Shown here: positions 5,940 to 64,000 of the stretch, piece after piece | Layout of the letters: the number at the start of each line of letters is the position of its first letter | How positions within the stretch are numbered: position 1 is the stretch's first letter | From: Patescibacteria group bacterium | GTDB lineage: Bacteria; Patescibacteriota; Microgenomatia; UBA8517 | DNA: 64,000 bases | Reading direction: 5' to 3' | NCBI GenBank assembly: GCA_038206135.1 | Contig: JBBRBD010000001.1 | Span: 1,919-65,918, forward strand | Notes under the pieces: generated by a model | The model's input: the letters and a program-made list of their open reading frames with translations, nothing else | Databases searched by the model: none | Told to the model about the DNA's origin: nothing | Program-made: the position numbers and the translations under genes

Positions 5940-6644
5940 ATGAAACTACCTGAATTGAGCGTGTTTTTTCCAGCTTACAACGAGGAGGGAAATATAACGG
6001 CAACCGTTGAGAAAGCGCTAAAAATTCTTCCAACCGTTGCAACTAAATGGGAACTTCTTGTTGTAAACGATGGCTCAAAGGATAAAACAGGAATGGTAAT
6101 TGATGCGCTATCAAAGCGACACAAAGGATTGAGAGCTATCCAGCACGAAATGAACAGGGGCTATGGTGCTGCAATTAAAAGTGGTCTTTATAATGCTAAA
6201 TACGACTGGATTGTATTTACTGATTCCGACGGTCAATTCGATTTTTCAGAAGTGACCAACTTCATTGATACTCAAGAAAAAACAAAAGCAGATTTGGTTG
6301 TTGGTTATTACAAAAAACGCCAAGTGAGTTTTTTTAAAATTCTCACAAGTAAAATGTGGGAAGTTGCTGTTTTTCTTTTGTTTGGACTTAAAGTCCATGA
6401 TATAGATTGTGGTTTTAAATTAATTAGTAAAAAAATGCTTGACAAAATTCCAGTGCTAGAAAGCGAGCGTGGAGCATTTGTTAGTAGTGAACTGCTTATA
6501 AAATCAAAGCGTTATGGTGCAAAAATTGTAGAAATTCCGATCACCCATTACCCTCGTGTGAAAGGCGAAGGAACTGGCCGTAACATTGATGTCATTATTG
6601 AAAGTTTTAAAGATTTACTAAAATTATGGTTAAAACTTCGCTAA
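5940..6644 (+). CDS. GT2 polyprenol-phosphate sugar synthase (Dpm1/ArnC/GtrB-like)
   Basis: LSVFFPAYNEEGNI, LLVVNDGSKDKT, NRGYGAAIKSG and FTDSDGQFD are canonical GT2 Dpm1-like motifs. It immediately precedes, and overlaps, a GT-C gene. Confidence 0.85.
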   Translation: MKLPELSVFFPAYNEEGNITATVEKALKILPTVATKWELLVVNDGSKDKTGMVIDALSKRHKGLRAIQHEMNRGYGAAIKSGLYNAKYDWIVFTDSDGQFDFSEVTNFIDTQEKTKADLVVGYYKKRQVSFFKILTSKMWEVAVFLLFGLKVHDIDCGFKLISKKMLDKIPVLESERGAFVSSELLIKSKRYGAKIVEIPITHYPRVKGEGTGRNIDVIIESFKDLLKLWLKLR

Positions 6645-8224
6645 TCAAAAACACTAATCTTTTACTGATTCAAACAAAAGAGTGGATTAAAGCTCACAAA
6701 GCTGAATTTGCTTTACTTGTATTTATATTAGTAGTTGCCTCGTTTATGCGTCTTTATAGAATTAGTGACTATATGACTTTCTTAGGGGATGAAGGGCGTG
6801 ATGTCATTATTGTAAAACGTTTCGTAACTCAAGGTGACATTATGCTCATCGGTCCAGGAACTTCAATTGGGAATATGTATTTAGGACCACTCTACTACTA
6901 TATGATGGCTCCTGCTCTACTTTTTGCTGGGTTTTCTCCTGTTGGTCCAGCTGTAATGGTTGCCTTATTGGGTATCGCAACTGTGTATTTAGTCTGGTTT
7001 TCGGTTCGTACTTGGTTTGGTAAAAAAGCTGCGGCTATTGCAAGTTTTTTATATGCAATTTCACCTACTATTATTATTTATAGTCACTCCAGTTGGAATC
7101 CGAATATTATGCCATTTTTCGCACTGCTTGCGGTTTGGGGAATTTGGAAAACTTGGAACGACAAACAATATTGGTGGCTTTTAGTTGTTGGCATTTGTAT
7201 CGCTGCGGCTTTGCAGTCACATTACTTGGCACTTTTGATAGTGCCCGTCCTTGGTTTGTTTTGGCTTTTTGCTTTTTGGCAGGCAAGAAAAGGAAAGAAC
7301 TTAAAGCGTATTGTTTTGTATTCACTCGGAGGTTTATTTCTCTTTTTGTTCCTGATGTCTCCACTTGCAATTTTCGATCTTCGACACAACTATATGAATT
7401 TCAATGCCTTGAAAGCATTTTTTACTGAAAGACAAACAACAGTATCCATTAAGCCGTGGAAAGCACTACCTGGAATGCTTCCACAACTTACACAAATCAC
7501 GACTCGTTTAATGGGTGGTTATGACACTACATTTGGCAATTGGATAGCATTAGGGGTAATTGCAAGCGTATTTATTGTAATAAAAAAAGGTTCATTGAAA
7601 GTGTGGAGTATTGAGCAAAAATCCGCGAGTTTGGTGTTGGTATGGCTCGGAACTGGTTTACTAGGACTTGCCCTCTATAAGCAACAAATTTATGATCATT
7701 ACTACGGCTTTTTGTTTCCGGTTCCATTTATTCTTATAGGAGGAGTACTTGGTACTATCAGTAATAAATATCGATTTAGAGGCCTATGGCTTATCATTAT
7801 TGTTCTCACATTACTTACCTGGGTGAGTTTGAAAGCAAGCCCATTGCAATATGCTCCAAACAAACAATATCCAAGATCAATTGATGTAGCAAATTCAATT
7901 TTGGACAAAAAGGGAAGTGACAACTTTAACTTCGCAGTGATTGCAGAGAGAAATTATGAGGGTGCATACCAGTACTTTTTACAAGATTCTACTAACTTTA
8001 AAGTAATAGACCCTCAAAACACGAAGGATACGATTACAAAACAACTGTTTGTTGTTTGTGAATTGCCTGTTGAAAAATGCGACCCTACCCATAATGCAAA
8101 AGCAGAAGTAGCAAACTTTGGTTGGAGTAAAATTGATGAAACGTGGCAGGTTGACGGAGTTAATATTTTCAAACTTACACATTCTCAGCCTCAGGCAACT
8201 TCATCCGCAAATCTCAAGAAATAA
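6626..8224 (+). CDS. GT-C membrane glycosyltransferase, PMT/ArnT-like (PMT_2-type)
   Basis: About 11 TM segments. First-loop motif FLGDEGRDVII followed by LIGPGTSIGNMYLGPLYYY. 19-nt overlap with the upstream GT2 gene. Confidence 0.8.
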   Translation: MVKTSLIKNTNLLLIQTKEWIKAHKAEFALLVFILVVASFMRLYRISDYMTFLGDEGRDVIIVKRFVTQGDIMLIGPGTSIGNMYLGPLYYYMMAPALLFAGFSPVGPAVMVALLGIATVYLVWFSVRTWFGKKAAAIASFLYAISPTIIIYSHSSWNPNIMPFFALLAVWGIWKTWNDKQYWWLLVVGICIAAALQSHYLALLIVPVLGLFWLFAFWQARKGKNLKRIVLYSLGGLFLFLFLMSPLAIFDLRHNYMNFNALKAFFTERQTTVSIKPWKALPGMLPQLTQITTRLMGGYDTTFGNWIALGVIASVFIVIKKGSLKVWSIEQKSASLVLVWLGTGLLGLALYKQQIYDHYYGFLFPVPFILIGGVLGTISNKYRFRGLWLIIIVLTLLTWVSLKASPLQYAPNKQYPRSIDVANSILDKKGSDNFNFAVIAERNYEGAYQYFLQDSTNFKVIDPQNTKDTITKQLFVVCELPVEKCDPTHNAKAEVANFGWSKIDETWQVDGVNIFKLTHSQPQATSSANLKK

Positions 8225-8225
8225 A

Positions 8226-9206
8226 ATGAATTATAAGGAATCTGCAGAAATACTTGAAAAAATAAAGGTTTCAAACAAAATTCTGTTGTCGTGTCATCAC
8301 CATCCAGATGCAGATACTGTTGGATGCGCGACCGTGCTTTCAGGAGTATTAACTGAAATGGGAAAGCAAACAAAAATTATTTGTCCAGATATTATTCCAG
8401 ATTTTTTAAAATTTATTGATGGAGCAGACAAAATTGAAACAGTACATTTCGAAGAATTTAATTTTGGTGAATATGACTTGTATATTGTTTGTGATACCTC
8501 TAGCTGGAAAAGACTGTTTATAGACCCCAACTTCACCAAACCAAATATCCCTGTAGTAGTTGTTGACAATCACACTTCAAATCAAGGTTTTGGGGCTATC
8601 GATTTACTCGATTATGAAACAAGTTCTGTTTGCGAAATGATTTGTAGTCTTTTTGAAGATTGGAGTATTGAGATTACAAAGTCTCGCGCAACAACCCTGT
8701 TGGCAGGAATTTTGGGAGATACAGGCTCGTTTCAATTTGAAGTTCACAAGAATACATTCTCAATTGCAGACAAGCTTATGAAGAATGGAGCTGATCGTGA
8801 GCTTGTAGCACTTAATTTATTTAATAATCTTCCCCTTGAATTGATTAAATTTTGGGGCTTGGTTATAGACAAACTTACGCTGGATAAAGCAGGGTTTGCT
8901 TATGTTGCGATATCTGAAGAAGAATATGCTCCGTACTTACACGTATATGGTACTCGAGAAACAGCAGCAAGCATGATTGTTTCAAAGGTAAAAGGCTCAT
9001 CATTTGGTTTTATTATGACCGGGGAATCGAACGGATGTTCAATTAGTTTTCGTTCTCGAGGAGGGGTAGATACATCAAAAATTGCAGTTGCACTCGGTGG
9101 AGGAGGTCACCCAGGGGCATCTGGCGCATGGATACGAAACAAATCTTTTGAGGAAACACTTGAAACAGTTTTGCAGTTATGCCGGGAAACAGCGAAAACT
9201 TCATGA
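8226..9206 (+). CDS. nrnA: DHH/DHHA1 phosphoesterase, NrnA-like (nanoRNase / pAp phosphatase)
   Basis: Motifs CHHHPDADTVGC (DHH motif I), VVVVDNHTSN (DHH), GILGDTGSFQF and GGGHPGASGA (DHHA1). Start moved to ATG 8226 right after the upstream stop. The ORF-track start at 8118 would overlap by 100 nt. Confidence 0.75.
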   Translation: MNYKESAEILEKIKVSNKILLSCHHHPDADTVGCATVLSGVLTEMGKQTKIICPDIIPDFLKFIDGADKIETVHFEEFNFGEYDLYIVCDTSSWKRLFIDPNFTKPNIPVVVVDNHTSNQGFGAIDLLDYETSSVCEMICSLFEDWSIEITKSRATTLLAGILGDTGSFQFEVHKNTFSIADKLMKNGADRELVALNLFNNLPLELIKFWGLVIDKLTLDKAGFAYVAISEEEYAPYLHVYGTRETAASMIVSKVKGSSFGFIMTGESNGCSISFRSRGGVDTSKIAVALGGGGHPGASGAWIRNKSFEETLETVLQLCRETAKTS

Positions 9207-10753
9207 GGCAGAAAAGAGGTATATCAAATCTTAGATCGCGCTTGTACCTAGAAATTAAGAGCCACATTTTTATATATTTAGCACTATTTGGTCTACTTCT
9301 CGAAGCAACTTTTTTAAGAGTCACTAGGACAAATCAAATATTAGGTTTTTACTTCGATCAGGGGCGAGATGCTTTAGTTATATCTGATTTGTTACAGCAT
9401 GGAAAATGGTTTTTGATCGGACCTACGACGGGTATTGCAGGAATATTTCGAGGACCGTTTTACTATTATCTGATTACACCTTTTTATTGGATAGGGCGAG
9501 GAAATCCAGTTTTTCCTGCCATTTTTCTTGCGCTTACTAGTGTTCTTGCTCTTTTACTTTTGTATTATTTGGCCAAAGAAGTTGCAGGACGTGGAGCAGG
9601 GCTTATCGCCGTTTGTATAGCAACATTTTCTTACTACTTGGTTTATGCAAGTCGTTGGCTAAGTAATCCCACACCAATGCTATTGTTGTCCCTCTTATTG
9701 TTTTGGATGATGGTTTTGATTCAAAAAGGGAAGTCTTGGGCTTGGATTGTGCTGTCCTTTATTGCCGGAAGCTCATTATTCCACTTTGGTTCATCAGGTG
9801 AGTTCTTTTATTTGCCCGCAATTCTAGTTTTTGCTTTGTGGCAATGGGGTGTATTTTCACTGAATTTTAAATTCCCTAAACTTGTTATTATTTTTGGCTC
9901 AATTCTTGCATTCATTTCGACTGCTGCACCACTTGTTATTTTTGACCTCAGACATGATAGGATTTTATCACACAATATTTTACAGTTTTTTGTTAAGGAC
10001 GGGAGCTTTAAAGCATCTTTCTGGGCAGTTGCACAAGCTAGAATTCAGTTTTTTGTAGAAGGTTTTTACAATAAAGTGTTTTTAAGCAGAGATGCATTAT
10101 CTACCTCACTTATGTGGGCGGCAATTATTGCAGGAGTGCTAAGTATTAAAATTTTCTGGACGAATGTTCATATTCGCGCCCTTATTCTTCTGCTCATTTC
10201 TCCGATAATTGGACTTATGTTTTTCCAGGGGAATCAAGGAAATATTTATGACTATTACTTAACCGGATATTATTTACCCTTCATTTTGTTTTTAAGCATA
10301 TGTGTATATCAGTTTTTGCGTGTTCGTCTTGTTGGTATATTATTTGTAATATTGTTTTTACTTATTTCGTATAAGGAAAACATTGAACCAAGCTGGTCAT
10401 TGACTCATAACCCTATTGATGGTCCGACAACTATTGCGTTTGGAAATGAGAGACAAGCTGTTTCTTGGGTATATGAAAACGCAAATGGGTCTGAATTTAA
10501 TGTAGACGAATATGTCCCTCCAGTCATTCCTTACACATACGATTATCTCTTTAGTTGGTATGGAAGAACACTAAATGGTAATGTGACAGAGAGGAAGGTT
10601 TCTCTTTTGTACACATTATATGAAGTAGACCCTCCCCATCCAGAAAGATTAAAAGCTTGGCTAGATCGGCAACAAGGTATTGGAATAGTTCAAGATGAGG
10701 TACACTTTGGGGGTATAACTGTTCAACGAAGAACGCGAATTACAATAAAATGA
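9203..10753 (+). CDS. GT-C membrane glycosyltransferase, PMT/ArnT-like
   Basis: Multi-TM. Loop motif FDQGRDALVISDL...LIGPTTGIAGIFRGPFYYY is paralogous to the 6626 and 10750 products. ATG 9203 overlaps the nrnA stop (ATGA). Confidence 0.75.
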   Translation: MRQKRGISNLRSRLYLEIKSHIFIYLALFGLLLEATFLRVTRTNQILGFYFDQGRDALVISDLLQHGKWFLIGPTTGIAGIFRGPFYYYLITPFYWIGRGNPVFPAIFLALTSVLALLLLYYLAKEVAGRGAGLIAVCIATFSYYLVYASRWLSNPTPMLLLSLLLFWMMVLIQKGKSWAWIVLSFIAGSSLFHFGSSGEFFYLPAILVFALWQWGVFSLNFKFPKLVIIFGSILAFISTAAPLVIFDLRHDRILSHNILQFFVKDGSFKASFWAVAQARIQFFVEGFYNKVFLSRDALSTSLMWAAIIAGVLSIKIFWTNVHIRALILLLISPIIGLMFFQGNQGNIYDYYLTGYYLPFILFLSICVYQFLRVRLVGILFVILFLLISYKENIEPSWSLTHNPIDGPTTIAFGNERQAVSWVYENANGSEFNVDEYVPPVIPYTYDYLFSWYGRTLNGNVTERKVSLLYTLYEVDPPHPERLKAWLDRQQGIGIVQDEVHFGGITVQRRTRITIK

Positions 10754-12228
10754 AAATAATTACTTTTATAAAGACACATAAACTACTTTTATTGGTATTA
10801 ATTTTAGGGTTGTTTTTTAGAGCGAGCAGAAGCCTTGAATTATTTGCGTATGGACACGATCAAGATCTTGCAGGCTGGTTTGTAAGAGATATAGTTGAAA
10901 ATCACCATCTACGCCTAATTGGGCAAGAAACATCAGTCCACGGGGTTTATATCGGTCCTGCATGGTATTACTCAATCGTGCCTTTTTATCTGTTGTTTCA
11001 TATGGCCCCGACTGCAGGTCTCGTTGTTTCTATATTCGCCGGATTAATTACTATTTTTAGTATTTGGTATGTTTTAAAAAGTATTTTTTCAAATAACGTA
11101 GGTCTCATCTCGTCATTTATATACGCTTGCTCCTTTGTGCTTGTTATGACCGACCGGGAAGTAGACCCTACAATCACAGTCGTATTGTGGTCAGTCTGGT
11201 TTTTGTATTCACTTCACCTTTTGATGAAGCAGAAAATACATAGAGGACTTGTTTTAAGTGCGTTTCTGTTCGCGTTTACTTGGCAAATTAATTTGGCACT
11301 CATAATTCTTGCGCCAGTTACAATCTTGACATTAATTTTTGCTAAAAAATGGCCACGCGTTTACGCGCTTCGAGATGCAATGATTGTAGGAGCATTAACA
11401 GTTAGTCCTTTCATGTTATTTGAAATAAAAAATGGTTTTTTACAAACAAGAGCAGTTTTAGGATCCGCAGTTGGTGGGGGAACACCAGTAAATTTTATTG
11501 AGAAGTTAGACAGAACAACGACGTTGTTATCTAAAAATATTCGTAATATATATTCTGGTGACATTATTTCAATGCCTGACAAGACTGCAATGCTTCTTAT
11601 GTTTGGTATCTTTTTCTTTTTAATACTCAGACGGAAAATTCGTTTGCAGTGGGCAATACTCTTTACGCTTTGGGTTTCGCTATATATTGTTTTTTTCAGT
11701 CATAATCCGCTAAATCTCTCCGAATACTATTTGAATGGGATGACGGTACTTTGGGTTCTTCTACCGTCCTTACTTTTGGAATCAATTCAAGAAAGTATTG
11801 TAGGAAAAGGTTTTGTCTTTATATTACTCACAACTTTTATTGTGGCTAACTTTATACGATTTGAAACAATACCTGTAAATAGAAGCGGATATGTTGATCG
11901 TATGAATCTAATTACTGAAATAAAACATGATTCTGCCATTCACAATTATCCTTGTGTCGCAGTAAGCTATATTACAACTCCAGGAAACAACTTAGGATAT
12001 AGATATTTGTTTTATTATCAAAATTTAGCAGTAAATTTACCAAAAACAGAGGCGCCTGTTTACACTATCGTATTCCCACATAGTTTAGTTGATAAAATTG
12101 ATGTCAGCTTCGGGGCACTTGGGCTAATTTATCCAGATTATAAAAAATACACTCCAGAAAGCGTGTCCAAAAGCTGTAGTTTCGGAAACCAAAATTTAAC
12201 TGAGCCATTATTTGGTTTTACTAACTGA
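10750..12228 (+). CDS. GT-C membrane glycosyltransferase, PMT/ArnT-like
   Basis: Multi-TM. GHDQDLAGWFVRDI...LIGQETSVHGVYIGPAWYY is the same subfamily as the 6626 and 9203 products. ATGA overlap with the upstream gene. Confidence 0.7.
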   Translation: MKIITFIKTHKLLLLVLILGLFFRASRSLELFAYGHDQDLAGWFVRDIVENHHLRLIGQETSVHGVYIGPAWYYSIVPFYLLFHMAPTAGLVVSIFAGLITIFSIWYVLKSIFSNNVGLISSFIYACSFVLVMTDREVDPTITVVLWSVWFLYSLHLLMKQKIHRGLVLSAFLFAFTWQINLALIILAPVTILTLIFAKKWPRVYALRDAMIVGALTVSPFMLFEIKNGFLQTRAVLGSAVGGGTPVNFIEKLDRTTTLLSKNIRNIYSGDIISMPDKTAMLLMFGIFFFLILRRKIRLQWAILFTLWVSLYIVFFSHNPLNLSEYYLNGMTVLWVLLPSLLLESIQESIVGKGFVFILLTTFIVANFIRFETIPVNRSGYVDRMNLITEIKHDSAIHNYPCVAVSYITTPGNNLGYRYLFYYQNLAVNLPKTEAPVYTIVFPHSLVDKIDVSFGALGLIYPDYKKYTPESVSKSCSFGNQNLTEPLFGFTN

Positions 12229-12247
12229 ATAGATATACAATACTCTC

Positions 12248-12994
12248 ATGAAATCTCCTTATTTATCTGTGGTTATACCCGCTTACCGAGAATCCGGAAA
12301 TATAAAGCGTGGAGTTTTGTCTAATGTGAATGAATATTTAAAAAAACAATCTTTTTCTTGGGAAGTAATTGTTGTTGATGACGGGTCTCCTGATAAAACA
12401 GCGGAAGAGATAGGTAAACAAATAAAAAAATATAAAAACTTTTCTCTCAAAAAAGAACCTCATCGAGGGAAGGGCGGAACGGTTATTGCAGGAATACTTT
12501 CTGCCAAGGGAGAAATCATTCTTTTTACAGATATGGATCAAGCTACCCCACTTTCAGAAATTCAGAAGTTCCTCCCGTACTTTTCGAAAGATTATGATGT
12601 TGTGATTGGTTCACGTTCAGGTCGCAAAGGGGAGCCACCTATAAGACAACTTATGGCATATGCCTTCATGTTTTTAAGAACTGCAATTCTTAGATTGCCA
12701 TACAAAGACACTCAATGCGGTTTCAAAGCCTTCAAAAGAGACGCTGCAAAAAAGATTTTTAGTAATATGAGAATTTTTACGTCTACTGGAACCGGAATGA
12801 CTGGTGTCACTGCAGCATTTGATCTAGAACTTTTATATATAGCGAGAAAATTGAATCTAAAAATCGCAGAAGTACCAGTAAACTGGGAACATGTGGGAAG
12901 TGTGCGCGTAAATCCACTTAAGGATTCTTGGCTCGGTTTTAAAGGGCTTATCCAAGTACGAATAAATGCACTCCGAGGGGTATATCGCGTTTAA
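12248..12994 (+). CDS. GT2 polyprenol-phosphate glucosyl/mannosyl-transferase (Alg5/GtrB-like)
   Basis: LSVVIPAYRESGNI, VIVVDDGSPDKT, HRGKGGTVIAG and FTDMDQATP are GT2 Dpm1/Alg5-like motifs. Confidence 0.85.
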   Translation: MKSPYLSVVIPAYRESGNIKRGVLSNVNEYLKKQSFSWEVIVVDDGSPDKTAEEIGKQIKKYKNFSLKKEPHRGKGGTVIAGILSAKGEIILFTDMDQATPLSEIQKFLPYFSKDYDVVIGSRSGRKGEPPIRQLMAYAFMFLRTAILRLPYKDTQCGFKAFKRDAAKKIFSNMRIFTSTGTGMTGVTAAFDLELLYIARKLNLKIAEVPVNWEHVGSVRVNPLKDSWLGFKGLIQVRINALRGVYRV

Positions 12995-12995
12995 T

Positions 12996-14583: not shown

Positions 14584-15033
14584 ATGGATCAGCAAGGATT
14601 CAAGTTTATCATTCCATTTAATGAGGGTGGAGTGTTGGTTCGTCGAATGGATGACATCGCATCGAATCATATACGTATAGAAAAGCATTTCCGAAAACGC
14701 TTTGGATATTTTGTCCCAATAGTAATTGGTCATTTCGAAATGACAGATGATCGATCGACGGGGATAGATATTCTAATTCACGAGCATACCAAAGTTCCAC
14801 TGGCTTTTTTTACATATTGGACGCCTGAATTCATTGGTAAATATCTAGGTGTTATTCTGGATGGACGCGGCAGTATCGGATTAGTCTGTTGCAGTGATAG
14901 TTTTGAAGAAGTTCAGAACGAAATTCATCCATATTGTAGTACTAAAGTGTCTTACCACGATTGTAAACACCAAACTTGGCTTGTGAAAAGTGGAACAGAC
15001 TTTGTGGAAGCTTTCATTACCGCTTGTTCATGA
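14584..15033 (+). CDS. hypothetical small soluble protein (149 aa)
   Basis: GGAGG SD 8 nt upstream of the ATG. No TM segments. Cys/His-containing (LVCCSDSFEE, CSTKVSYHDCKH). Its stop overlaps the downstream start (ATGA). Confidence 0.55.
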   Translation: MDQQGFKFIIPFNEGGVLVRRMDDIASNHIRIEKHFRKRFGYFVPIVIGHFEMTDDRSTGIDILIHEHTKVPLAFFTYWTPEFIGKYLGVILDGRGSIGLVCCSDSFEEVQNEIHPYCSTKVSYHDCKHQTWLVKSGTDFVEAFITACS

Positions 15034-50473: not shown

Positions 50474-50498
50474 AAGTAGTATATAATTCAGCTATGTG

Positions 50499-50520
50499 TA
50501 TAGTGACATCTGTGTTTATA
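50499..50520 (+). promoter_or_regulatory. intergenic motif TATAGTGACATCTGTGTTTATA (copy 2 of the 11-mer GTGACATCTGT)
   Basis: Same 11-mer as at 14552-14562. Lies in the 109-nt gap between the methyltransferase gene and the wecB-like gene. A TATAAT-containing stretch (gtagtatataattc) lies just upstream. Confidence 0.3.
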
Positions 50521-50582
50521 TTTGACGTTTTTGAACTTCGAAAGTTTTTTTTCATTATTAATCGGGTAAATACTAATTATTA

Positions 50583-56244: not shown

Positions 56245-58090
56245 TAGGAAAAAACGTTTGGCATTTACATGTTTTTGTTTGATTGTCGTTTTGTCGTTTT
56301 TAAGTTGTTACAAATCCTTTAGATACGGCTTTTGGAGAGATGACTGGGTACTTATATGGCAAGCGTTGTATGATAGGGCTAATTTTCTAAAGTGGATATT
56401 GGGAATTAGACATCCCGGTGAAATATTCAACACATATGCCTTGGCCCCAATCTTTGGTCAACAGGTACTACTTTGGCAATATTTCGGTTTTATATTGAAA
56501 GTACTTGTTAGTTTAGTAAGCAGCTTTGTCCTTTATTCTTTAATAGGTTCAAAAAAAGGTGCATTCATTTCATCATTACTAATTGCTTCAAGCTTTATCG
56601 GATTGGAAGGGTATAACTGGATTAGCGCAAGATTAAACGTATATGTCCTTCTAGTTTGTCTCATTGCAACTTTGTTTTATATTGAGAGTAAAAAAATGTC
56701 TTCAATTAAATATTATATCTATAGTTTGATTTTTCTAATATTTGGTATGTTCATGGAGCCGGGAAGGGTTATATTTCTACCATTCGTTCTAATATCTTGG
56801 GAAATAACTGTTGGACGGATAGAAAATAGCATATTTAAATTTATAAATTTGATTAGAATGGTTTTTATTATTATAGCTACACTTGCTGGAGCCTTAACTA
56901 CAAGCTATGGAAGAACATTACTTTATGGTGGTACGTCTGGCTATATTCAAAATCTTCAGAAGGATAATAGTGCTTTCTTGCGTTTTTTCTACTCGCTTTC
57001 AAATTTAATTCTTATATATATAAAAGGGATACGTGAATCTGCGGGATTGTCAACTGGGTTTAATCGTTTTGATGCATATATCGGTCTATTATTAGTTGTA
57101 TTATTGATATTAAGCGGTTTATTCATGTTTGTTAAAAAAGAAAAGAATTTACCGGTTTTTGTGGTATCTAGCCTGTGGTTACTTTTATTCTTTGCACCTG
57201 GATGGATATCAGACATGTCAGTTTCTTTAAGTGAAAGCTCTCGATTCTTTACAATTAGTTCAGTTGGATTTACATGGATTTTAACTCTGATTGTATTAAA
57301 ATTTTCACCAAAAATTTGTATTGTAGTTACAATACTACTTATATTTACGAATCTTTTGTTTTCAAACAAAATACAATCTTCAAATTACAACATCAGAAGC
57401 TTTGAAATTGCGAATAATTTTTACAGAACGCAACAAAAGTATGTGTCTGGTTTAGGTACACCTCTGATTTTTATAGTCACTGGTGATAACATTCTAAAAG
57501 GTTATATTTTTGATTGGGGAACTGACGGTTCTGTACAATTTTCCTATGCTAGAAGTATTAAGCAAATTGAGAAAATTCCTATATATGGTATAGATTATAA
57601 ATTGGCTGCCAAATTGATTTGCGAGAAGAATGTAAATAGACCATTTATAAATGAATGGGGGTTACAAACTGATAAAGTTACGATAGATGAAGTGTATGGT
57701 TGGAATTTAAACAAAGATGGCAACTTAGATCAAACTATAGATAAAACAAGAATCAAGGTTGCACATGAAGGCGATTGTTTATTTCGAAATATTGACAAGA
57801 CTTTTAATAATCGACAATTGATAATCAAATCATACTTTCTTCTTAAGCATCCATATAATGACGTAGTCAATTCGGTTAGTAGTTTTAAGGTAATAAATAT
57901 TGTCAAGAATGCATTCGAAGTAAATGTTTTACTCTACGAAAAAGGAAAATTAATCACAAAATATATGCAAAAAGTAGATCAGATATCAAGTGTCGGTGAA
58001 TATTATATTTACATTCGGCACCCTGTAATTAATATTCCAGATAAAGCAGTTTTTATTTACGAAAATCAGAGTAAAGTAATAAGTATATGA
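56222..58090 (+). CDS. polytopic membrane protein, unclassified (paralog of the 54724 product, with C-terminal soluble domain)
   Basis: First loop FWRDDWVLIWQALYD, about 11 TM, then a ~220-aa soluble C-terminal domain. Confidence 0.5.
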   Translation: MKLLDYINRKKRLAFTCFCLIVVLSFLSCYKSFRYGFWRDDWVLIWQALYDRANFLKWILGIRHPGEIFNTYALAPIFGQQVLLWQYFGFILKVLVSLVSSFVLYSLIGSKKGAFISSLLIASSFIGLEGYNWISARLNVYVLLVCLIATLFYIESKKMSSIKYYIYSLIFLIFGMFMEPGRVIFLPFVLISWEITVGRIENSIFKFINLIRMVFIIIATLAGALTTSYGRTLLYGGTSGYIQNLQKDNSAFLRFFYSLSNLILIYIKGIRESAGLSTGFNRFDAYIGLLLVVLLILSGLFMFVKKEKNLPVFVVSSLWLLLFFAPGWISDMSVSLSESSRFFTISSVGFTWILTLIVLKFSPKICIVVTILLIFTNLLFSNKIQSSNYNIRSFEIANNFYRTQQKYVSGLGTPLIFIVTGDNILKGYIFDWGTDGSVQFSYARSIKQIEKIPIYGIDYKLAAKLICEKNVNRPFINEWGLQTDKVTIDEVYGWNLNKDGNLDQTIDKTRIKVAHEGDCLFRNIDKTFNNRQLIIKSYFLLKHPYNDVVNSVSSFKVINIVKNAFEVNVLLYEKGKLITKYMQKVDQISSVGEYYIYIRHPVINIPDKAVFIYENQSKVISI

Positions 58091-59286
58091 AAGAACACAA
58101 ACTAACAATTCATATCTTTTCATTGGCAGTAGAAGGTGTAGGTATTTCAGGAGGAGATAAAATTTTTATTGAATTTGCAAGAAACTGGAAAAATACTGAA
58201 AACGTGATTATACATACGTGGGATGCAGGTGTTCAAATGATGGATAAACAGGGATTATCTGAAGGTAAATCATTAAATATAATAAATTATAATGCCACTC
58301 GCATTTCGAAATTCGGAAAAATACCTTTTTACATTTTTCGAATAATACTTGGCGCGTTTAAAGCATGTTTATTGCGTACCGAAAACAGCAAATATACCGT
58401 TTTTTATAGCTCATCTGAATTTCTGATCGATGTTGTGCCCACCTTAATTTTAAAATTTCGATACCCTAAATCTATTTGGGTTGCATCTTGGTATCAAACA
58501 GCCCCAAACCCATTGGTAGGATTCGGCGATTCTTCTAGAGATCAAAAACATAGATTCAAAGCGTTATTATATTGGCTATCTCAAATACCAACTCGACCTC
58601 TGATTTCTTTATTTTCTAATTTTGTTTTGGTTAACAATAACGATGAAATGAATGAATTTCCTAAGCACAACAAACTAAAAAAAGTTGGTGTTGTATTAGG
58701 TGCAGTAGATATAAGTAAAATTGAAATTTGGAAAAACAAACTAACCTCACAAGCAAAATATAAAGCGGTTTTCCAAGGTCGGTTCCATCCTCAAAAAGGT
58801 GTATCAGAACTAATTGATATTTGGAAGCTAGTAGTTAATCAAATCCCTTCTGCAAAATTAGTAATGATAGGAGATGGTCCTGAGATGCAAACAGTTATTA
58901 AAAAAATAGAAAAATATCATCTAGAGAAAAATATCGAATTAAAAGGATACTTATTCGATGGTGAGGAAAAATATCAGATTTTTGTAAATTCAGAAATAGT
59001 TGTACATCCCTCATATTTTGATTCAGGTGGAATGGCTTCTGCTGAAGCGGCGGCGTTTGGATTGCCAATAGTTGGTTTTAATCTACCTGCTTATAAATAC
59101 TATTATCCCAAGGGTATGTTGAAGGTTCCTATTGGGAATAAAACAGCTTTTGCTAAAGCTGTGATATATTTACTAGTAAACTCAAAAGAAAGAAGAAAAA
59201 TCGGGAAAGAAGCAATGTTAAGTATTCACAAAAATTTTGATTGGAAGGTAAGAGCAAAGGAAACATTGAATTTAATAAAAAGATAA
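58087..59286 (+). CDS. GT4-like glycosyltransferase (GT-B fold)
   Basis: C-terminal GRFHPQKGV...VMIGDGPE...VHPSYFDSGGMASAEAAAFGLPIVGFN is typical of GT4. ATGA overlap with the upstream gene. Confidence 0.65.
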   Translation: MKEHKLTIHIFSLAVEGVGISGGDKIFIEFARNWKNTENVIIHTWDAGVQMMDKQGLSEGKSLNIINYNATRISKFGKIPFYIFRIILGAFKACLLRTENSKYTVFYSSSEFLIDVVPTLILKFRYPKSIWVASWYQTAPNPLVGFGDSSRDQKHRFKALLYWLSQIPTRPLISLFSNFVLVNNNDEMNEFPKHNKLKKVGVVLGAVDISKIEIWKNKLTSQAKYKAVFQGRFHPQKGVSELIDIWKLVVNQIPSAKLVMIGDGPEMQTVIKKIEKYHLEKNIELKGYLFDGEEKYQIFVNSEIVVHPSYFDSGGMASAEAAAFGLPIVGFNLPAYKYYYPKGMLKVPIGNKTAFAKAVIYLLVNSKERRKIGKEAMLSIHKNFDWKVRAKETLNLIKR

Positions 59287-60035
59287 TGAATAACAAACAA
59301 ATAATTGTAGAAAAAAAATTAGGTATTCCAGCAGATTATCAATATAAAGCAATTCGTAGTAAAAACTTTTTACAAAGAAATTGGCATAAAAATAAATTGA
59401 TAGTTGTAAATGAATTGCTAAACTTCAGTAAAGAAAGTTCTGTGCTTGATTTAGGGCCAGGTTCAGGGAATTTTGAACTTCAGTACTGTAAAAAGGTCTC
59501 TAATATAGTTGCCATTGATTATAACAACGAAGCGATCAATTTCTTGTATAAGAAAATAAAACAACGAAAAATCAAAAATATAACACTAAAAGTACTAGAT
59601 GTTCGAAATTTATCTCGATATAAAACTACACAAAAGTTTGATTTTATTGTAATGATAGATGTTATTGAGCATATTAAGATAAATGAAGCAGAGCAAGTTG
59701 TGAAAGAAATGAATAGGCTTCTAAAAAAAGGAGGAAGAGCCTGCATTATAACTCCAAACTACAAAAGTTTTTGGGTGTATATTGAAAGAATTCTAGATCT
59801 ACTTACCATTGTTCCAAAATTTGATAATCAGCAACACCTGGCTAAGTTTCACAAACAAAATCTAATTCAAATGTTTGAGAAAAGAGGTTTTAAAACAAAC
59901 TATATAGGATCCTTTAATTTATTTGCTTTCTTTTTCCCAAAATCAAATTTGAGTCAAACAATTACTAAATTTGAATTAAATTCAATTGGAACAATCGGTA
60001 ATCTACTAGTCGGTGTATTTGAGAAGAAAAAGTAA
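59286..60035 (+). CDS. class I SAM-dependent methyltransferase
   Basis: VLDLGPGSGNF, AIDYNNEAI, MIDVIEHI, LKKGGRACIITPN. ATG 59286 overlaps the upstream TAA. Confidence 0.75.
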   Translation: MNNKQIIVEKKLGIPADYQYKAIRSKNFLQRNWHKNKLIVVNELLNFSKESSVLDLGPGSGNFELQYCKKVSNIVAIDYNNEAINFLYKKIKQRKIKNITLKVLDVRNLSRYKTTQKFDFIVMIDVIEHIKINEAEQVVKEMNRLLKKGGRACIITPNYKSFWVYIERILDLLTIVPKFDNQQHLAKFHKQNLIQMFEKRGFKTNYIGSFNLFAFFFPKSNLSQTITKFELNSIGTIGNLLVGVFEKKK

Positions 60036-60053
60036 GTAAATCATGTTTTTTAT

Positions 60054-60926
60054 ATGAAATCAAAACTAATAAAAGTGGTTGCAGTAGTTCCTACGTTTCA
60101 GAGTTATGTAACTTTGATAGCATGTGTAAATTCACTCCTCGAACAAAACTTCAAATTGAGTGAGATCGTTATCGTAGATAATAATACTAAATCTAAAAAA
60201 CTTAAATTTAAATCAAATATTGTGAAAGTTGTAACACCAGGAAAAAATTTAGGTGTTTCAGGCGGTAGAAATAAAGGACTAGATTCAATTTCTGGAAAGT
60301 ACGAATATGTCCTCTTTTTTGACCACGATATGGTGGCAGACGTGAATATGGTTAAGTGTCTTCTAGAAACGGCCAAACGTATTACAAAAGCGGGAATTAT
60401 AACACCAAAGATTTATTATTGGGAGCAGAAAAAAATCATTTGGGCAGCAGGAACTGAAATAGACACATTAAGTGGACAAGTTTTGTTTCGAGGCGGAAAT
60501 GATACTGGCCAATATGACGAGGAACAGGAGGTTCAAGTTGCACCCGCAGCTATATTTGTAAAAAAGATCGTAATTAACAAAATAAAATGTTTTGATGAGC
60601 GTTATTTTGCTACATATGAAGATACTGATTTCTGTTTTAGAGCAAAAAGCGTTGGTTATTCGACCATGTACGCACCTGATGCAATTGCCTATCATAAAAT
60701 TCCATATGATGAAAAAAAATCAAATTTAAAGCTACTTTCGAGAAGTTATTATGTTGCAAAAAATAGAATTATTTTTATGAAGAAATATGGACAAAATTTT
60801 CTACTTTTCTGCTTATTTTTCATTCCTGTCTATGCCTGTTATTATCTAATATTGTCCCTTAAATATAATAGACTTAGTGAATACAAGAATTATCTAAAAG
60901 GAACTATAGCGGGATTAACTAATTAA
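60054..60926 (+). CDS. GT2 glycosyltransferase
   Basis: VAVVPTFQSY, IVIVDNNTKS, FFDHDM, YEDTDFCFR. Confidence 0.8.
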   Translation: MKSKLIKVVAVVPTFQSYVTLIACVNSLLEQNFKLSEIVIVDNNTKSKKLKFKSNIVKVVTPGKNLGVSGGRNKGLDSISGKYEYVLFFDHDMVADVNMVKCLLETAKRITKAGIITPKIYYWEQKKIIWAAGTEIDTLSGQVLFRGGNDTGQYDEEQEVQVAPAAIFVKKIVINKIKCFDERYFATYEDTDFCFRAKSVGYSTMYAPDAIAYHKIPYDEKKSNLKLLSRSYYVAKNRIIFMKKYGQNFLLFCLFFIPVYACYYLILSLKYNRLSEYKNYLKGTIAGLTN

Positions 60927-60927
60927 G

Positions 60928-61569
60928 ATGTTATTTCCTTTTTCTTATCATTGGATCCTTTTGAAATCAATCTCAAATGCAGATAGTATATTGGATATTG
61001 GATGTGGTGAAGGATCATTAATGAAAGATTTAATTCAATACAGACCTTTATGGAAGGTAACGGGGATAGAGCTATATGAGGATTCTTTAAAAAACGCTCG
61101 TGAGAAAAACATATATACAAAAGTATTAAAAGGAAATGTTGTACATATTGAAAATAGATTTAAGAGTAAATCTGTAGACGTTGTGTTTAGTTCACAAGTA
61201 GTAGAACATCTAAAGAAGGATGAAGCGATTAAAGCTTTAAAAGAGTGGGAACATTTTGCAAAAAAAAGAATAGTCATCACGACAATAGTGGGTTTCTTTG
61301 AATATAATCCAATAGAAAAAGAAAAAGATAAGAACCCTCTTCAAGCTCACAAAAGTGCCTGGTCAATAGAAGAGTTTAAGCAAATGGGATACAAGGTTCA
61401 TGGTCAAGGATTGAAATATATATATGGAGAAAAAGGCATTGCACACAAATACCCATTTTTTCTGCATTGGTTTACTTATATTGCGTTCTGTTTTGCACCT
61501 ATCTGTTATTTTTTTCCTTCACTATCAACATATATGATTGCAGTTAAAGAGATTAAAAATGAATATTGA
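60928..61569 (+). CDS. class I SAM-dependent methyltransferase
   Basis: ILDIGCGEGSL, GIELYEDSL, SSQVVEHL. Confidence 0.75.
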   Translation: MLFPFSYHWILLKSISNADSILDIGCGEGSLMKDLIQYRPLWKVTGIELYEDSLKNAREKNIYTKVLKGNVVHIENRFKSKSVDVVFSSQVVEHLKKDEAIKALKEWEHFAKKRIVITTIVGFFEYNPIEKEKDKNPLQAHKSAWSIEEFKQMGYKVHGQGLKYIYGEKGIAHKYPFFLHWFTYIAFCFAPICYFFPSLSTYMIAVKEIKNEY

Positions 61570-62215
61570 AACTATTCTCAAATATGTGCCATTTTCGATT
61601 ATTTGGGTACATCGTAAGGCAATCGGCGAACCAAACACACTGCTCGATCTTGGAAGCGGTGATGGTACATTCACAAAGTCAATAAAGCTTGATTCTGATT
61701 GGATTATAACAGCAGCTGACATATACCCCAAGATTGTTAAAGATGCACTGAGAAATGACTTATACAAAAAAGTAATAAATGGAGATGTAAATACTATTGT
61801 CAACGATTTAATTAAGAAAAAGCAGAAGTATAATGTTGTTTTACTGTCTCAAGTTATTGAACATTTGAATAAAAATGAAGGCAAAAAATTATTAAAAGCT
61901 GTTGAAAAAATTGCAACCAACCGTATTGTAGTTGGTACACCGCGTGGATATCTGTCACAGGAAGATGTGTTTGTAGATGAAAATCCATTTCAAAAACACA
62001 AATCTGGTTGGACAACTGAGGAGTTTCAAGAAATGGGATATGTGGTAAGAGGTGTTGGTTTAAATATAGTATGGAAAGAAAAAGGGCCAGGGAGATCAGG
62101 TAATATGTTAAAAGTTTTAATCTTTAGACTATTTTCGTTGCTTTGTTCACCGATGGTATATTATCACCCAGAATATGCCTCTGGCCTTGTTTGTTATAAA
62201 GAAATGCATGATTGA
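61559..62215 (+). CDS. class I SAM-dependent methyltransferase (paralog of the 60928 product)
   Basis: LLDLGSGDGTF, LSQVIEHL, and QKHKSGWTTEEFQEMGY parallel to QAHKSAWSIEEFKQMGY in the upstream paralog. Confidence 0.75.
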   Translation: MNIETILKYVPFSIIWVHRKAIGEPNTLLDLGSGDGTFTKSIKLDSDWIITAADIYPKIVKDALRNDLYKKVINGDVNTIVNDLIKKKQKYNVVLLSQVIEHLNKNEGKKLLKAVEKIATNRIVVGTPRGYLSQEDVFVDENPFQKHKSGWTTEEFQEMGYVVRGVGLNIVWKEKGPGRSGNMLKVLIFRLFSLLCSPMVYYHPEYASGLVCYKEMHD

Positions 62216-63233
62216 ACATCCATTTGCGTCTATTGTAATTGCAAACTATAACGGGGAAAAACACCTAGAACGATGTTTGAAAAGCGTTTTAAAACAGAAT
62301 TATAAAAATTTCGATTTAATAATTGTAGACGATGGTTCCACAGATAATAGTCAAAAAATTATTAGGAAATATTTACAGAGTGATAAAAGAATTAAACTTA
62401 TTAGTAACAAGTCTAACCTTGGCGCTGCAGCATCGAGAAACAATGCAATAAAGATCTCAAATTCAGAAATACTCGTTTTCCTTGATAACGATACTGCGGT
62501 CGAAAAAAATTGGCTTAAAGAATTAATAATAGTTTTAACATCAAATTCAAACATTGGTGCAACTCAATCTTTGATTCTAGATATGGAAAAAGGTGATTTG
62601 ATTCAAATGGCAGGAGGGAAGTTAATTGCTCAAACGGCCTGGCTTATTCCTAGATTACAGTGGAAGAGTTATCGACGTTTCAAAAATTCTCTAAAGAATA
62701 CGCAGATAATCGCAATTTCAGCTTCACTTGCTGTAAAGTCTAGCGTTTTTAAACATATAGGTTTTTTTGATGAAAAGGAAGCTGTAACGACCGAAGATAT
62801 TGATTTAAGTTGGCGAGTATGGATTGCAGGTTACAAAATATTGCTAGCTCCTAAATCCATTGTTTATCACGAGACAAAATCAGTTGAAGCCAGAAAATAT
62901 ATGAATGTTAATTATCAAAAGGTTTATTTTCACTTAGCAAAGAACTCTTTTCGTTCAATTTTGAAAAATTATGAGGCGATAAATTCGTTTAGATATTTGT
63001 TTATGAGTATATTCATAAACATCACTCGAGCATGTATTGTTATCCCGAAAGTAGGTTTTTCTGCAATGAATGGTACTATTGCAGCTATTTTGTGGAATAT
63101 TTTTAATATAAGAGACACTCTTTTAGAGAGAAAAAAGGTTCAGCTCATAAGGCATACCACTGATCATGAATTATTGACAGCAGTTTTTGATGGCAGAAGT
63201 ATATGGCAGATTTATTTGCAATATTTTCGTTAA
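62208..63233 (+). CDS. GT2 glycosyltransferase
   Basis: ASIVIANYNGEKHL, LIIVDDGSTDNS, FLDNDT, TEDIDLSWR. ATG 62208 placed just upstream of the previous gene's stop. Confidence 0.8.
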   Translation: MIEHPFASIVIANYNGEKHLERCLKSVLKQNYKNFDLIIVDDGSTDNSQKIIRKYLQSDKRIKLISNKSNLGAAASRNNAIKISNSEILVFLDNDTAVEKNWLKELIIVLTSNSNIGATQSLILDMEKGDLIQMAGGKLIAQTAWLIPRLQWKSYRRFKNSLKNTQIIAISASLAVKSSVFKHIGFFDEKEAVTTEDIDLSWRVWIAGYKILLAPKSIVYHETKSVEARKYMNVNYQKVYFHLAKNSFRSILKNYEAINSFRYLFMSIFINITRACIVIPKVGFSAMNGTIAAILWNIFNIRDTLLERKKVQLIRHTTDHELLTAVFDGRSIWQIYLQYFR

Positions 63234-63235
63234 AA

Positions 63236-64000
63236 ATGAAAAAATTAATATTTTTTACTTCAATTCTACTTGTCGTTATATGGTTTAGATCAGGAAATCT
63301 AATGGGGACAGGAGAGTCAGGATTACCGTTTTATAATATTAGTCTCGAGGCAAATATAACTCGACACTCGTGGACAGATGTCTTTCTGGGTTTTCCTACA
63401 ACTGCTAGTGTTGGCACCTATCCTTTATATAAGGTCTTCACCGTAATAGAGCAAACGTTTAGCTTGAAAGGTTACCAAACAGAAGCATTATTTATATTTA
63501 TTGTTTTGATTATTTCCGGATTTTCTATCGATTTATTAGTTTGTTATATTTTTCCAAATACAAAGTTAATAAATAGATACACAGGTGTATTGTTTTATTG
63601 GTTTAATCCGTTTGCGGCCGTAAATATATGGAATCGATTTCTTTATAATTACATGCTTTTTTATGCAATCTTGCCGCTTCTTTTGTATGTCTATTACAAA
63701 GGAATTAATGAACGCAGAATAGAGTACGCATTTGGAATAGGAATATTAGTATTTATATTTTCCTATGCAATTATAAATGTGCCGTTTATTTTACTGATGT
63801 TGGGCTTGTTCTTATTAACCACTATTTACTTTTCGAACAAAAGAACAATCCTTTTTAATATTAAATTTTATGCAATTGCTGTTACCTCGATTATTGCAAT
63901 AAATTTCTGGTGGATTGCTCAACTTTTTATTTATACGCATTCGAGTGATTTTAAGGTTTCTGTAAGTTCTTTTTTTACAATCGAGGGAAATGTATCTAAT
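63236..64000 (+). CDS. 3'-truncated large membrane protein, DUF3367/AftD-like (paralog of 52733..54739)
   Basis: ATG 63236 overlaps the upstream TAA. LMGTGESGLPFYN and NIWNRFLYNYMLFYAILPLL align with LIATGEEGLMFYN and QIFNRFLTPSMFAWSFLPWF of the 52733 protein. Open to the window end. Confidence 0.5.
   Translation, partial: MKKLIFFTSILLVVIWFRSGNLMGTGESGLPFYNISLEANITRHSWTDVFLGFPTTASVGTYPLYKVFTVIEQTFSLKGYQTEALFIFIVLIISGFSIDLLVCYIFPNTKLINRYTGVLFYWFNPFAAVNIWNRFLYNYMLFYAILPLLLYVYYKGINERRIEYAFGIGILVFIFSYAIINVPFILLMLGLFLLTTIYFSNKRTILFNIKFYAIAVTSIIAINFWWIAQLFIYTHSSDFKVSVSSFFTIEGNVSN

Follow-up and report, generated by a model that had tools for sequence, protein, structure and literature searches.

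A 58-kb co-directional gene cluster rich in GT-C-type membrane glycosyltransferases in a Woesebacteria genome

Gene content and layout of the cluster

We analyzed 64,000 nucleotides (nt) of DNA from a Patescibacteria group bacterium (GenBank assembly GCA_038206135.1, contig JBBRBD010000001.1, positions 1,919 to 65,918 of the forward strand), hereafter called the window, and focused on a large cluster of glycan-related genes that occupies it from position 5,940 to the end. Open reading frame (ORF) listing and Pfam scans resolved this part into an unbroken plus-strand series of 49 genes, G1 to G49, preceded by U1 to U5 (Table 1). The whole window holds 61 ORFs of at least 100 amino acids (aa); the few on the minus strand between 5,940 and 64,000 are all nested in plus-strand genes and match no family. 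An initial annotation, made from the sequence alone, had described a single-strand locus with nearly all genes related to glycans, and both points were borne out, the exceptions to the latter being G3 and G8.

By Pfam, G1 to G49 comprise 13 glycosyltransferases of family GT2, 5 of GT4, 5 S-adenosylmethionine-dependent methyltransferases, 1 short-chain dehydrogenase/reductase (SDR) and 1 WecB-type epimerase (Epimerase_2), and for export 3 Wzx-type flippases (Polysacc_synt) and 1 ABC half-transporter. Except for the GT2 genes, of which at least 14 had been annotated and 14 are reached with upstream U1, these are the numbers given initially, and that inventory as a whole was accurate almost item by item. 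Hydropathy analysis yielded 18 polytopic proteins that are not transporters (G2, G4, G5, G7, G9, G12, G19 to G25, G28, G40, G41, G42 and G49), each with 7–10 transmembrane (TM) segments except for the truncated G49 with 4, and U5 is a nineteenth. The 18 genes cover about 28.6 of the 58.1 kb. The density of GT-C enzymes, the superfamily to which we assign these proteins below, lies above what is normal for O-antigen or capsule clusters, as had been claimed, and we hold it highly probable that the locus is an envelope glycan cluster dominated by GT-C glycosyltransferases.

The packing of G1 to G49 is operon-like. The median intergenic distance is −4 nt, corresponding to an ATGA overlap, and the maximum is 109 nt between G37 and G38, beyond which just four gaps exceed 20 nt. 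A run of 49 genes on the same strand far exceeds random orientation; as the GC skew is positive along the entire window, co-orientation with replication probably contributes to it. Neither tRNA genes nor Rfam families were found within the window. Promoter-like sites were not more common than in shuffled sequence (58 against 66, 58 against 78 and 95 against 105), nor were terminator-like sites judged to be so (17 against 12, 15 against 11 and 12 against 8), and the two scans are therefore uninformative on transcription units. Several genes (G3, G9, G12 and G31) have TTG or GTG starts and overlap their upstream neighbor by 40–107 nt, their true starts probably lying further downstream. The start of G41 is likewise uncertain, since the protein at the National Center for Biotechnology Information (NCBI) has 452 aa and covers 89% of the 506-aa ORF.

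Table 1. Genes of the cluster (G1 to G49) and of the upstream part of the window (U1 to U5). Families A to E are the BLASTP groups described in the text; E values follow the Pfam names unless given in bits.
Gene	Coordinates	Strand	Assignment and evidence
G1	5940..6644	+	Short soluble GT2, ArnC/GtrB/DPMS type (Pfam); candidate polyprenyl-phosphate sugar synthase
G2	6626..8224	+	GT-C PMT_2, family B; PMT_2 43.7 and PMT 28.4 bits, both above gathering score; 9 TM
G3	8118..9206	+	DHH/DHHA1 phosphoesterase, NrnA-like (Pfam); not glycan-related
G4	9179..10753	+	GT-C PMT_2, family B; PMT_2 34 bits
G5	10750..12228	+	GT-C PMT_2, family B; PMT_2 38.2 bits
G6	12248..12994	+	Short GT2, ArnC/GtrB/DPMS type (Pfam); 31% identity to G1 over 216 aa
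G7	12966..14531	+	GT-C PMT_2/PMT, family B; PMT_2 37.9 bits
G8	14584..15033	+	149-aa soluble protein; no Pfam match, no TM; counted as not glycan-related
G9	14976..16850	+	GT-C family C (PTPS_related-like); 30% identity to G22 over 536 aa
G10	16928..18721	+	ABC half-transporter, 6 N-terminal TM and C-terminal nucleotide-binding domain, MsbA/PglK-type architecture; ABC_tran 3e-34, residues 366–522
G11	18749..20254	+	Wzx-type (MOP) flippase; Polysacc_synt_3 2.6e-56
G12	20193..21956	+	Polytopic, no Pfam or PDB sequence match; probable GT-C, weakest case
G13, G14, G15	21963..22859, 22861..23781, 23769..24554	+	Three cytoplasmic GT2; Glycos_transf_2
G16	24518..25576	+	GT4; Glycos_transf_1 1.4e-22
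G17, G18	25573..27266	+	Two GT2; conserved core starts here (Pfam, synteny)
G19	27227..29014	+	GT-C family A, PMT-like paralog; PMT_2 20 bits, below gathering score
G20	29011..30270	+	GT-C, ALG6/PIG-M-like (ortholog profile against PDB)
G21	30293..31930	+	GT-C family A; PMT 28, PMT_2 28.4 bits
G22	31906..33597	+	GT-C family C, paralog of G9
G23	33594..35261	+	GT-C family A; PMT 28.6 bits
G24	35224..36921	+	GT-C family A, best-conserved member; PMT/PMT_2 above gathering score; modeled structure
G25	36924..38579	+	GT-C family A; PMT 32.5 bits
G26, G27	38584..40502	+	GT2 (G26) and GT4 (G27); conserved core (Pfam)
G28	40499..41635	+	GT-C, PIG-V-like family E
G29, G30	41639..44181	+	Two Wzx-type (MOP) flippases; Polysacc_synt 1e-19 each
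G31	44114..44944	+	ArnC/GtrB/DPMS-type GT2; most conserved gene of the core
G32	44941..46059	+	GT4, Glycos_transf_1 3e-34; conserved core ends here
G33–G39	46044..52729	+	SDR (G33), GT2 (G34), GT4 (G35), methyltransferases (G36, G37), UDP-GlcNAc 2-epimerase-type (G38), GT2 (G39) (Pfam)
G40	52733..54739	+	AftD-like GT-C; GT-C_AftD 68.2 bits (cutoff 26)
G41	54724..56244	+	GT-C, rare family without Pfam model; distant paralog of G42
G42	56222..58090	+	GT-C, rare family without Pfam model
G43–G48	58087..63233	+	GT4 (G43), methyltransferase (G44), GT2 (G45), methyltransferases (G46, G47), GT2 (G48) (Pfam)
G49	63236..64000	+	AftD-like GT-C cut by window end; full length 1,100 aa
U1	3..1004	+	GT2 fused to GtrA/DPMS TM domain, N terminus cut by window edge; Glycos_transf_2 3e-18, GtrA_DPMS_TM 8e-16; candidate polyprenyl-phosphate sugar synthase
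U2	1068..2609	+	513 aa; N-terminal TM/signal segment, Pro/Thr/Ser-rich linker at about residues 35–85, Cys-rich body, no Pfam family
U3	2851..3546		Stand-alone 3'-5' exonuclease (DNA_pol_A_exo1)
U4	3865..4737		290 aa, family unassigned
U5	4734..5888	-	Polytopic paralog of G28; GT-C, PIG-V-like; 6 TM

Assignment of the polytopic proteins to the GT-C superfamily

All-against-all BLASTP grouped the polytopic proteins into families A (G19, G21, G23, G24 and G25), B (G2, G4, G5 and G7), C (G9 and G22), D (G40 and G49) and E (G28 and U5) and left G12, G20, G41 and G42 as singletons. All 19 proteins link to the GT-C superfamily through Pfam, profile–profile comparison or predicted fold, G12 being the weakest case. 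Eight of them (G2, G4, G5, G7, G21, G23, G24 and G25) match PMT (PF02366) or PMT_2 (PF13231) above the gathering score, below which G19 and G22 remain. G19 is a full-length paralog of this set (BLASTP E values from 1e-38 to 1e-77, the best against G25), giving the nine PMT/ArnT-like proteins counted initially. Members of family A are 25–34% identical to one another over their full length, and homologs of G24 carry the NCBI names "glycosyltransferase family 39 protein" or "ArnT family glycosyltransferase"; as PMT_2 also covers ArnT-type lipid glycosyltransferases, membership of GT39 in the strict sense is not established. The MIR domain had no match in any window protein at Pfam E values up to 0.01, and the TPR domain was absent from all PMT/ArnT-like proteins in the Pfam scans of the window.

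The modeled structure of G24 matches ALG12, AglB, STT3, Pmt4, ArnT, AftA, AftB, AftD, PimE and Emb, with ArnT giving the highest TM-score in Foldseek (0.53/0.55), and places the protein within the GT-C fold. The models of G24 and G42 resemble solved GT-C enzymes, transporters appearing only at Foldseek probabilities of 0.15 or lower. Since both the fold and the profile searches gave GT-C enzymes, we rejected the placement of the polytopic proteins in transporter families, an outcome that the initial annotation had considered. Searches of the PDB by sequence returned little: the G24 family profile found only ArnT (E value 0.05), the profiles of the G28, G12, G9/G22 and G42 families nothing useful, and G12, G42 and G24 as single sequences only noise. 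G12, G28, G41 and G42 had no match in Pfam or NCBIfam when the thresholds were relaxed.

Every family for which an alignment was available shows a conserved Asp directly after the first TM segment, where the first outside helix begins. The acidic residues at this place are D46-E47 in G24, D27 in G20 (invariant), D56 in G28 and D40-D41 in G42 (nearly invariant), and the D-E motif of loop 1 is invariant in family A. The catalytic Asp of PimE, ALG6, ArnT and PglB occupies the same position (PMC12041525). An oligosaccharyltransferase identity (STT3/PglB/AglB) was considered and rejected, as none of the 19 proteins contains a WW[DE] or W[WY]D[YFW]G motif and the likeness to these enzymes is at the level of the fold only.

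Proteins outside families A and B were connected to the superfamily through their relatives. The G20 profile, built from 36 orthologs of related genomes, matched GPI mannosyltransferase 1 (PIG-M; 3.8e-9) and ALG6 (6e-8) in the PDB; members of this family match Pfam Alg6_Alg8, PIG-U, GT87 and ALG3, and hhalign linked it to families A (probability 89%) and E (91%). Family E, where U5 and G28 share 26% identity over 346 aa (BLASTP E value 1.5e-12), had been annotated as PIG-V-like, for which the orthologs, and not the window members, gave support. G28 and U5 themselves have no Pfam match, PF04188 (Mannosyl_trans2) included, and the family has no PDB sequence match; in an alignment of the two with 39 orthologs, 12 of the 41 sequences match PF04188 (PIG-V; best 3e-13) and 11 match PMT_2. 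The family E consensus contains N-F-D-G-E-H-Y, and U5 reaches 43 bits, below the cutoff, against NCBIfam NF046093 (cell surface glycopolymer formation).

The description of G9 and G22 as YfhO-like did not hold up: no YfhO match appeared even at E values up to 10, and only sub-threshold matches to PTPS_related (16 and 12 bits) and PMT_2 (22 bits) were found. The G22 ortholog in one related locus (L002) carries PTPS_related, and the family C profile was linked by hhalign to family A (probability 73%; G22 against family A 68%), G40 (97.2%) and the G42 family (96.1%). Two AftD-like proteins (formerly DUF3367) had been proposed and were recovered as G40, with its Pfam match, and its paralog G49 (BLASTP 1e-11).

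The word-indexed homolog search with G41 or G42 returned the query alone, and exhaustive HMMER searching found 174 relatives of G42 among 1.84 billion representative proteins. Single-sequence hhalign against family profiles was too weak for G12, G41 and G42, and profile–profile comparison was used instead. It linked G41 to the G42 family (99.8%, E value 1.5e-28) and the G42 family to family A (97.6%); the AlphaFold2 model of G42 (pLDDT 89) had PglB, AglB, ALG12, Pmt4, STT3 and DPY19 as its top Foldseek matches. The G12 family profile was linked to the G42 family (89% over 123 columns) and to family C (49%). The cluster thus holds at least two GT-C families lacking a Pfam model, that of G41/G42 and, as a probable member of the superfamily, that of G12.

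Conservation across Microgenomates

Homologs of G24 at 55–70% identity are named Candidatus Woesebacteria, Microgenomates or Patescibacteria group bacterium, and the organism belongs to the Woesebacteria (Microgenomates) within the candidate phyla radiation (CPR), in agreement with the origin proposed initially. NCBI lists the protein of the window itself on a contig of 160 kb. We scanned the G24 alignment against one genome per species in GTDB, confirmed at least 515 relatives and retained 80 loci spanning Woese-, Blackburn-, Shapiro-, Ames- and Daviesbacteria and unnamed Microgenomates. Every ORF in these loci was assigned to its best window protein, and related complete genomes were read to ±10 kb. 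The loci share a recurrent block with the same order and strand, G17-G18-G19-G20-G21-(G22)-G23-G24-G25-G26-G27-G28-G30-G31-G32. In the window, this core from G17 to G32 includes eight GT-C genes. It opens with two GT2 genes and seven GT-C genes in tandem, continues with one GT2, one GT4 and one PIG-V-like GT-C, and closes with a pair of MOP flippases, a candidate DPM1-like synthase and a GT4. Neighbors are kept for G23-G24 in 68, G24-G25 in 76 and G25-G26 in 65 of the 80 loci, and the 41 loci with full flanks have a median of 8 GT-C-like genes (range 3–9) in 21.7 kb.

The median identity of proteins from other genomes to the window protein is 38–47% for the family A orthologs and 53% for G31. 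With 97 proteins of family A, drawn from 18 genomes, neighbor joining gives a tree of five orthogroups, each its own clade. As the clades are separate and orthologs are closer than paralogs, the family A duplications predate the radiation of the class, and every copy has been kept since. Such retention is expected if each enzyme makes a different linkage, unlike for redundant or fast-turnover antigen genes.

The regions on either side differ from the core. The 5' block G2 to G18 is syntenic in one metagenome contig (L086) at 35–50% identity, in the order G2-G4-G5-G6-G6-G7-G9-G11-G12-...-G13-G18. G3, G8 and G10 are all absent from this contig and hence look like lineage-specific insertions. The GC content declines steadily along the window, from about 0.39 to about 0.30 (0.36–0.39 per gene in G1 to G11 and 0.28–0.33 in G33 to G49), and the rare G41/G42 family lies in the AT-rich 3' third; on account of both features, the 3' block looks like the variable part. 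The cluster is thus a composite of a class-conserved core and more variable flanks. We infer that the core makes a product common to the whole class; lineage- or strain-specific elaborations of it probably come from the 5' block and from the 3' block with its higher AT content.

Expansions and insertions of other kinds were seen elsewhere. In the contig Ga0209515_10000053 from another organism (L087:81-13648), G9-like genes stand four in tandem, in one row with a Wzx gene and two genes of G12 type, one of which has a long extension at its N terminus; here the same GT-C families have expanded in another way. Many other Woesebacteria carry a gene for a 222-aa LigT/2',5'-RNA-ligase-like protein between the G23 and G24 orthologs (e.g. 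L004:9336-10004) and one for a 425-aa FAD/DAO-type oxidoreductase between the G25 and G26 orthologs (e.g. L004:13456-14733), with a Y1 transposase nearby; none of the three is present in this window.

The cluster continues past the window end. A contig from an independent Logan assembly (L093, 7959-14023) extends 5.3 kb further, completes G49 at 1,100 aa and, after a gap of 500 nt, contains G50, whose GT-C-like product is at least 754 aa long, has 9 TM segments and weakly resembles G40. Altogether, the cluster measures at least about 64 kb and has at least 20 GT-C-like genes when U5 is counted.

A proposed lipid-linked assembly line and its alternatives

U1, G1, G6 and G31 form a single GT2 subgroup in BLASTP, with U1 linked to G1 and G6, and G31 linked to G1 (1e-19) and G6 (3e-18). 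The best PDB matches of G1 are ArnC (4e-13) and GtrB (9e-13), over residues 5–212. G1-G2 and G6-G7 are neighbor pairs in which a candidate synthase of GT2 stands directly upstream of a PMT_2 GT-C. The presence of these four ArnC/GtrB/DPMS-type genes and the family membership of the GT-C proteins suggest that the latter use polyprenyl-phosphate sugar donors on the outer side of the membrane.

Family and fold membership, the conserved acidic residues of loop 1, the gene order and its conservation across genomes are direct observations, and from them we infer donor sugars, acceptor, order of steps and product. We favor, at a probability of roughly 0.55, the sequential extension of a lipid- or wall-linked glycan on an assembly line with its later steps on the membrane's outer face. 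The soluble GT2 and GT4 enzymes would use nucleotide sugars, tailored by the epimerase and the SDR, to build an oligosaccharide primer on polyprenyl (pyro)phosphate at the cytoplasmic face, and the primer would cross the membrane via the flippases G11, G29 and G30 and perhaps the ABC half-transporter G10. U1, G1, G6 and G31 would load single sugars onto polyprenyl phosphate, from which the about 19–20 GT-C enzymes could each add one defined residue or linkage outside the cell, and the five methyltransferases may cap or modify the glycan. That family A orthologs are more similar than paralogs, fall into separate clades and keep their neighbors argues for an assembly line and not for redundant copies. 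A bolder and considerably more tentative proposal is that the core makes one defined complex glycan, a hallmark of Microgenomates envelopes, on a bacterial counterpart of the ALG/LAM-type lipid-linked line, the product being a lipoglycan, a wall polysaccharide or a protein-linked oligosaccharide. If so, the glycan could be important for envelope integrity or host attachment in ultra-small, probably symbiotic cells.

The proposed logic would best be read as that of the mycobacterial synthesis of phosphatidylinositol mannosides (PIM), lipomannan (LM), lipoarabinomannan (LAM) and arabinogalactan and of the eukaryotic ALG (dolichol) pathway. The mycobacterial genes are scattered over a 4.4-Mb genome, whereas about 20 genes stand here in one co-directional cluster and related complete genomes have only 0.6–0.9 Mb. 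The mycobacterial pathway proceeds from cytoplasmic GT4 and GT2 steps through flipping to GT-C enzymes that make one linkage each from polyprenyl-phosphate sugars produced by DPMS-type enzymes (PMC12041525). The same order of enzyme classes (PimA/B of GT4; Ppm1 of GT2; the GT-C enzymes PimE, MptA/B/C, EmbA/B/C and AftA-D) is proposed here, and the likeness extends to the match of G40, with its paralog G49, to the AftD model (PF11847) and to AftA, AftB, AftD, PimE and Emb among the structural matches of G24. However, there is no sequence-level orthology beyond the superfamily and no sign of phosphatidylinositol or arabinan chemistry, and G40 is half the size of mycobacterial AftD.

Like the ALG and glycosylphosphatidylinositol (GPI) pathways (ALG1/2/11, DPM1/ALG5, RFT1, ALG3/9/12/6/8/10, PIG-M, PIG-V and STT3), the core combines GT4 and GT2 enzymes, the DPM1-like G31, MOP flippases and several GT-C enzymes, among them G20, whose family matches PIG-M and ALG6, and G28, whose family has some members that match PIG-V. 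Identities are only 7–17%, and the comparison concerns shared enzyme superfamilies, with nothing to indicate common descent of the whole pathway. Unlike in the ALG pathway, the STT3/PglB-type WWDYG is absent from the 19 proteins, and thus en-bloc transfer to Asn is not indicated. The adjacent pairs of ArnC/GtrB-like GT2 and PMT_2 GT-C genes resemble three-component systems (GtrA/GtrB/Gtr*, ArnC/ArnT and CsbB/GtcA/YfhO); in contrast to those, the cluster has no separate small GtrA-type flippase gene, only U1 having a fused GtrA/DPMS domain, and its GT-C genes far outnumber the candidate synthases, about 19 to 4. CPR bacteria are, to our knowledge, regarded as lacking lipopolysaccharide, which makes lipid A an unlikely acceptor.

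Several observations weigh against the assembly line. The fold of G24 is equally near enzymes acting on lipid-linked oligosaccharide (ALG12), protein (AglB, STT3 and Pmt4) and lipid A (ArnT) and is therefore silent on the acceptor. Protein O-mannosyltransferases would account just as well for the matches to PMT/PMT_2 and for the D-E motif. TM segments are lacking in G1, G6 and G31, unlike in ArnC and GtrB with their C-terminal TM helices, and the assignment of G12 to GT-C is weak. By Pfam, the window contains no initiating phosphoglycosyltransferase of WecA/MraY or WbaP/PglC type (Bac_transf, Glycos_transf_4), and no Wzy_C/O-antigen ligase, chain-length regulator (Wzz) or LCP ligase was detected in it, so that the start and the end of the pathway are either absent here or elsewhere in the genome. 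Finally, for CPR organisms in general we are aware of neither expression nor biochemical data and of no structural work on their glycans.

The strongest competitor is protein O-glycosylation, in which the PMT/ArnT-like enzymes would each glycosylate different secreted, S-layer or pilin proteins and the cytoplasmic glycosyltransferases would serve a separate polysaccharide. Eukaryotes use many enzymes in this manner (PMT1-6, TMTC1-4 and TMEM260), and the eight proteins with PMT/PMT_2 and the invariant D-E motif of family A resemble the GT39 enzymes of fungi and animals and the actinobacterial Pmt. U2 adjoins the DPMS-like U1 and, as a secreted protein with a Pro/Thr/Ser-rich linker, is a candidate for an O-glycosylated surface protein. 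Glycosylation of CPR pilins has been put forward, without a test (PMC11623550). We nevertheless consider this explanation unlikely: the lack of MIR and TPR domains in all the proteins speaks against it, as does the tight co-conservation with GT4, GT2 and Wzx genes, more typical of one glycan, and ALG12, ArnT and AftA/AftD are equally good structural matches. Moreover, Actinobacteria with proven PMT-type O-mannosylation need a single Pmt, and in place of one gene per genome this cluster has nine paralogs. The contents of the flanks could instead point to a variable locus for surface antigens, ordinary in kind (O-antigen, capsule or teichoic acid) but oversized, with one Wzx-dependent polymer and many swappable Gtr/YfhO-type three-component decorations exchanged horizontally for phage or host evasion. 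The drop in GC content toward the 3' end, the near lack of relatives of G41 and G42, the absence of G3, G8 and G10 from the syntenic contig, the different insertions and extra paralogs of other genomes and the Gtr-like pairs G1-G2 and G6-G7 are as such a locus would have them. Yet in five named lineages the core with its eight GT-C genes has retained both order and orthology, with median identities of 38–53%, the opposite of hypervariable, and of the parts of a Wzx/Wzy-type cluster the window has three Polysacc_synt genes and neither Wzy, a chain-length regulator nor an initiating transferase. This explanation fits the flanks and not the core, and for the cluster as a whole we think it quite improbable.

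An artefact, either a chimera of assembly or binning or a misreading of permeases as enzymes, has the least to recommend it and is highly improbable. The source is a metagenome-assembled genome, and the Logan assembly of run SRR19962010 breaks at six points (about 7.76, 16.3, 24.6, 32.9, 50.1 and 55.25 kb) with the junctions unbridged. However, its seven contigs tile positions 303–64,000 at 100% identity, abutting or overlapping by at most 28 nt, and the gene order of other loci bridges the first four junctions (G2-G18 in L086, G13-G27 in L079 and G17-G32 in L002); for those at 50.1 and 55.25 kb, support comes from the original assembly and not from other species. On the basis of the tiling and the shared order, we rejected the chimera, which the initial annotation had raised as a concern and which is very unlikely, and the GT-C results of the fold and profile searches speak against permeases, in line with the Foldseek probabilities given above.

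Each component of the cluster can be placed in a superfamily already known, and public databases list the genes under generic names. What is new here is that a proposed lipid-linked assembly line is compacted into a single cluster with operon-like packing. For so small a genome, the cluster is unusually rich in GT-C enzymes, some of them from families that Pfam does not model, and it is conserved throughout a CPR class. We know of no surface glycan of any CPR bacterium that has been characterized. An expansion of such glycosylation systems had initially been described as reported in CPR, and we found no paper on a GT-C/PMT expansion there or on a conserved GT-C array, subscription journals being outside the coverage of the search. 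Large numbers of glycosyltransferases in CPR genomes are unsurprising by themselves, one complete Microgenomates genome having 29 such genes (PMC7143001), and a study of Saccharibacteria calls the glycosylation processes there unexplored (PMC11623550).

If the genome is similar in size to the related complete ones, the at least 58 kb spent on one glycan cluster amount to roughly 6–9% of it. CPR bacteria have tiny genomes and have lost many pathways. The investment and the conservation argue that the product is central to building the cell surface, and the glycan may matter for interactions with hosts, phages and the environment. The cluster offers a concrete gene set, compact as an operon, in which five orthogroups separate cleanly and two GT-C families lack a Pfam model, and could be of use in glycobiology and structural biology and for marker glycans or lectin probes for uncultivated Microgenomates.

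Two minor observations concern the surroundings of the cluster and its database records. U3 and U4 stand between U1/U2 and the main cluster, and the largest intergenic gaps of the window, 241 and 318 nt, are found there. Dozens of GTDB records with the conserved block (L008, L010, L011, L013 and others) are titled "uncultured Gammaproteobacteria bacterium", one as Clostridia and one as Chitinophagaceae, such titles evidently being placeholders or binning errors.

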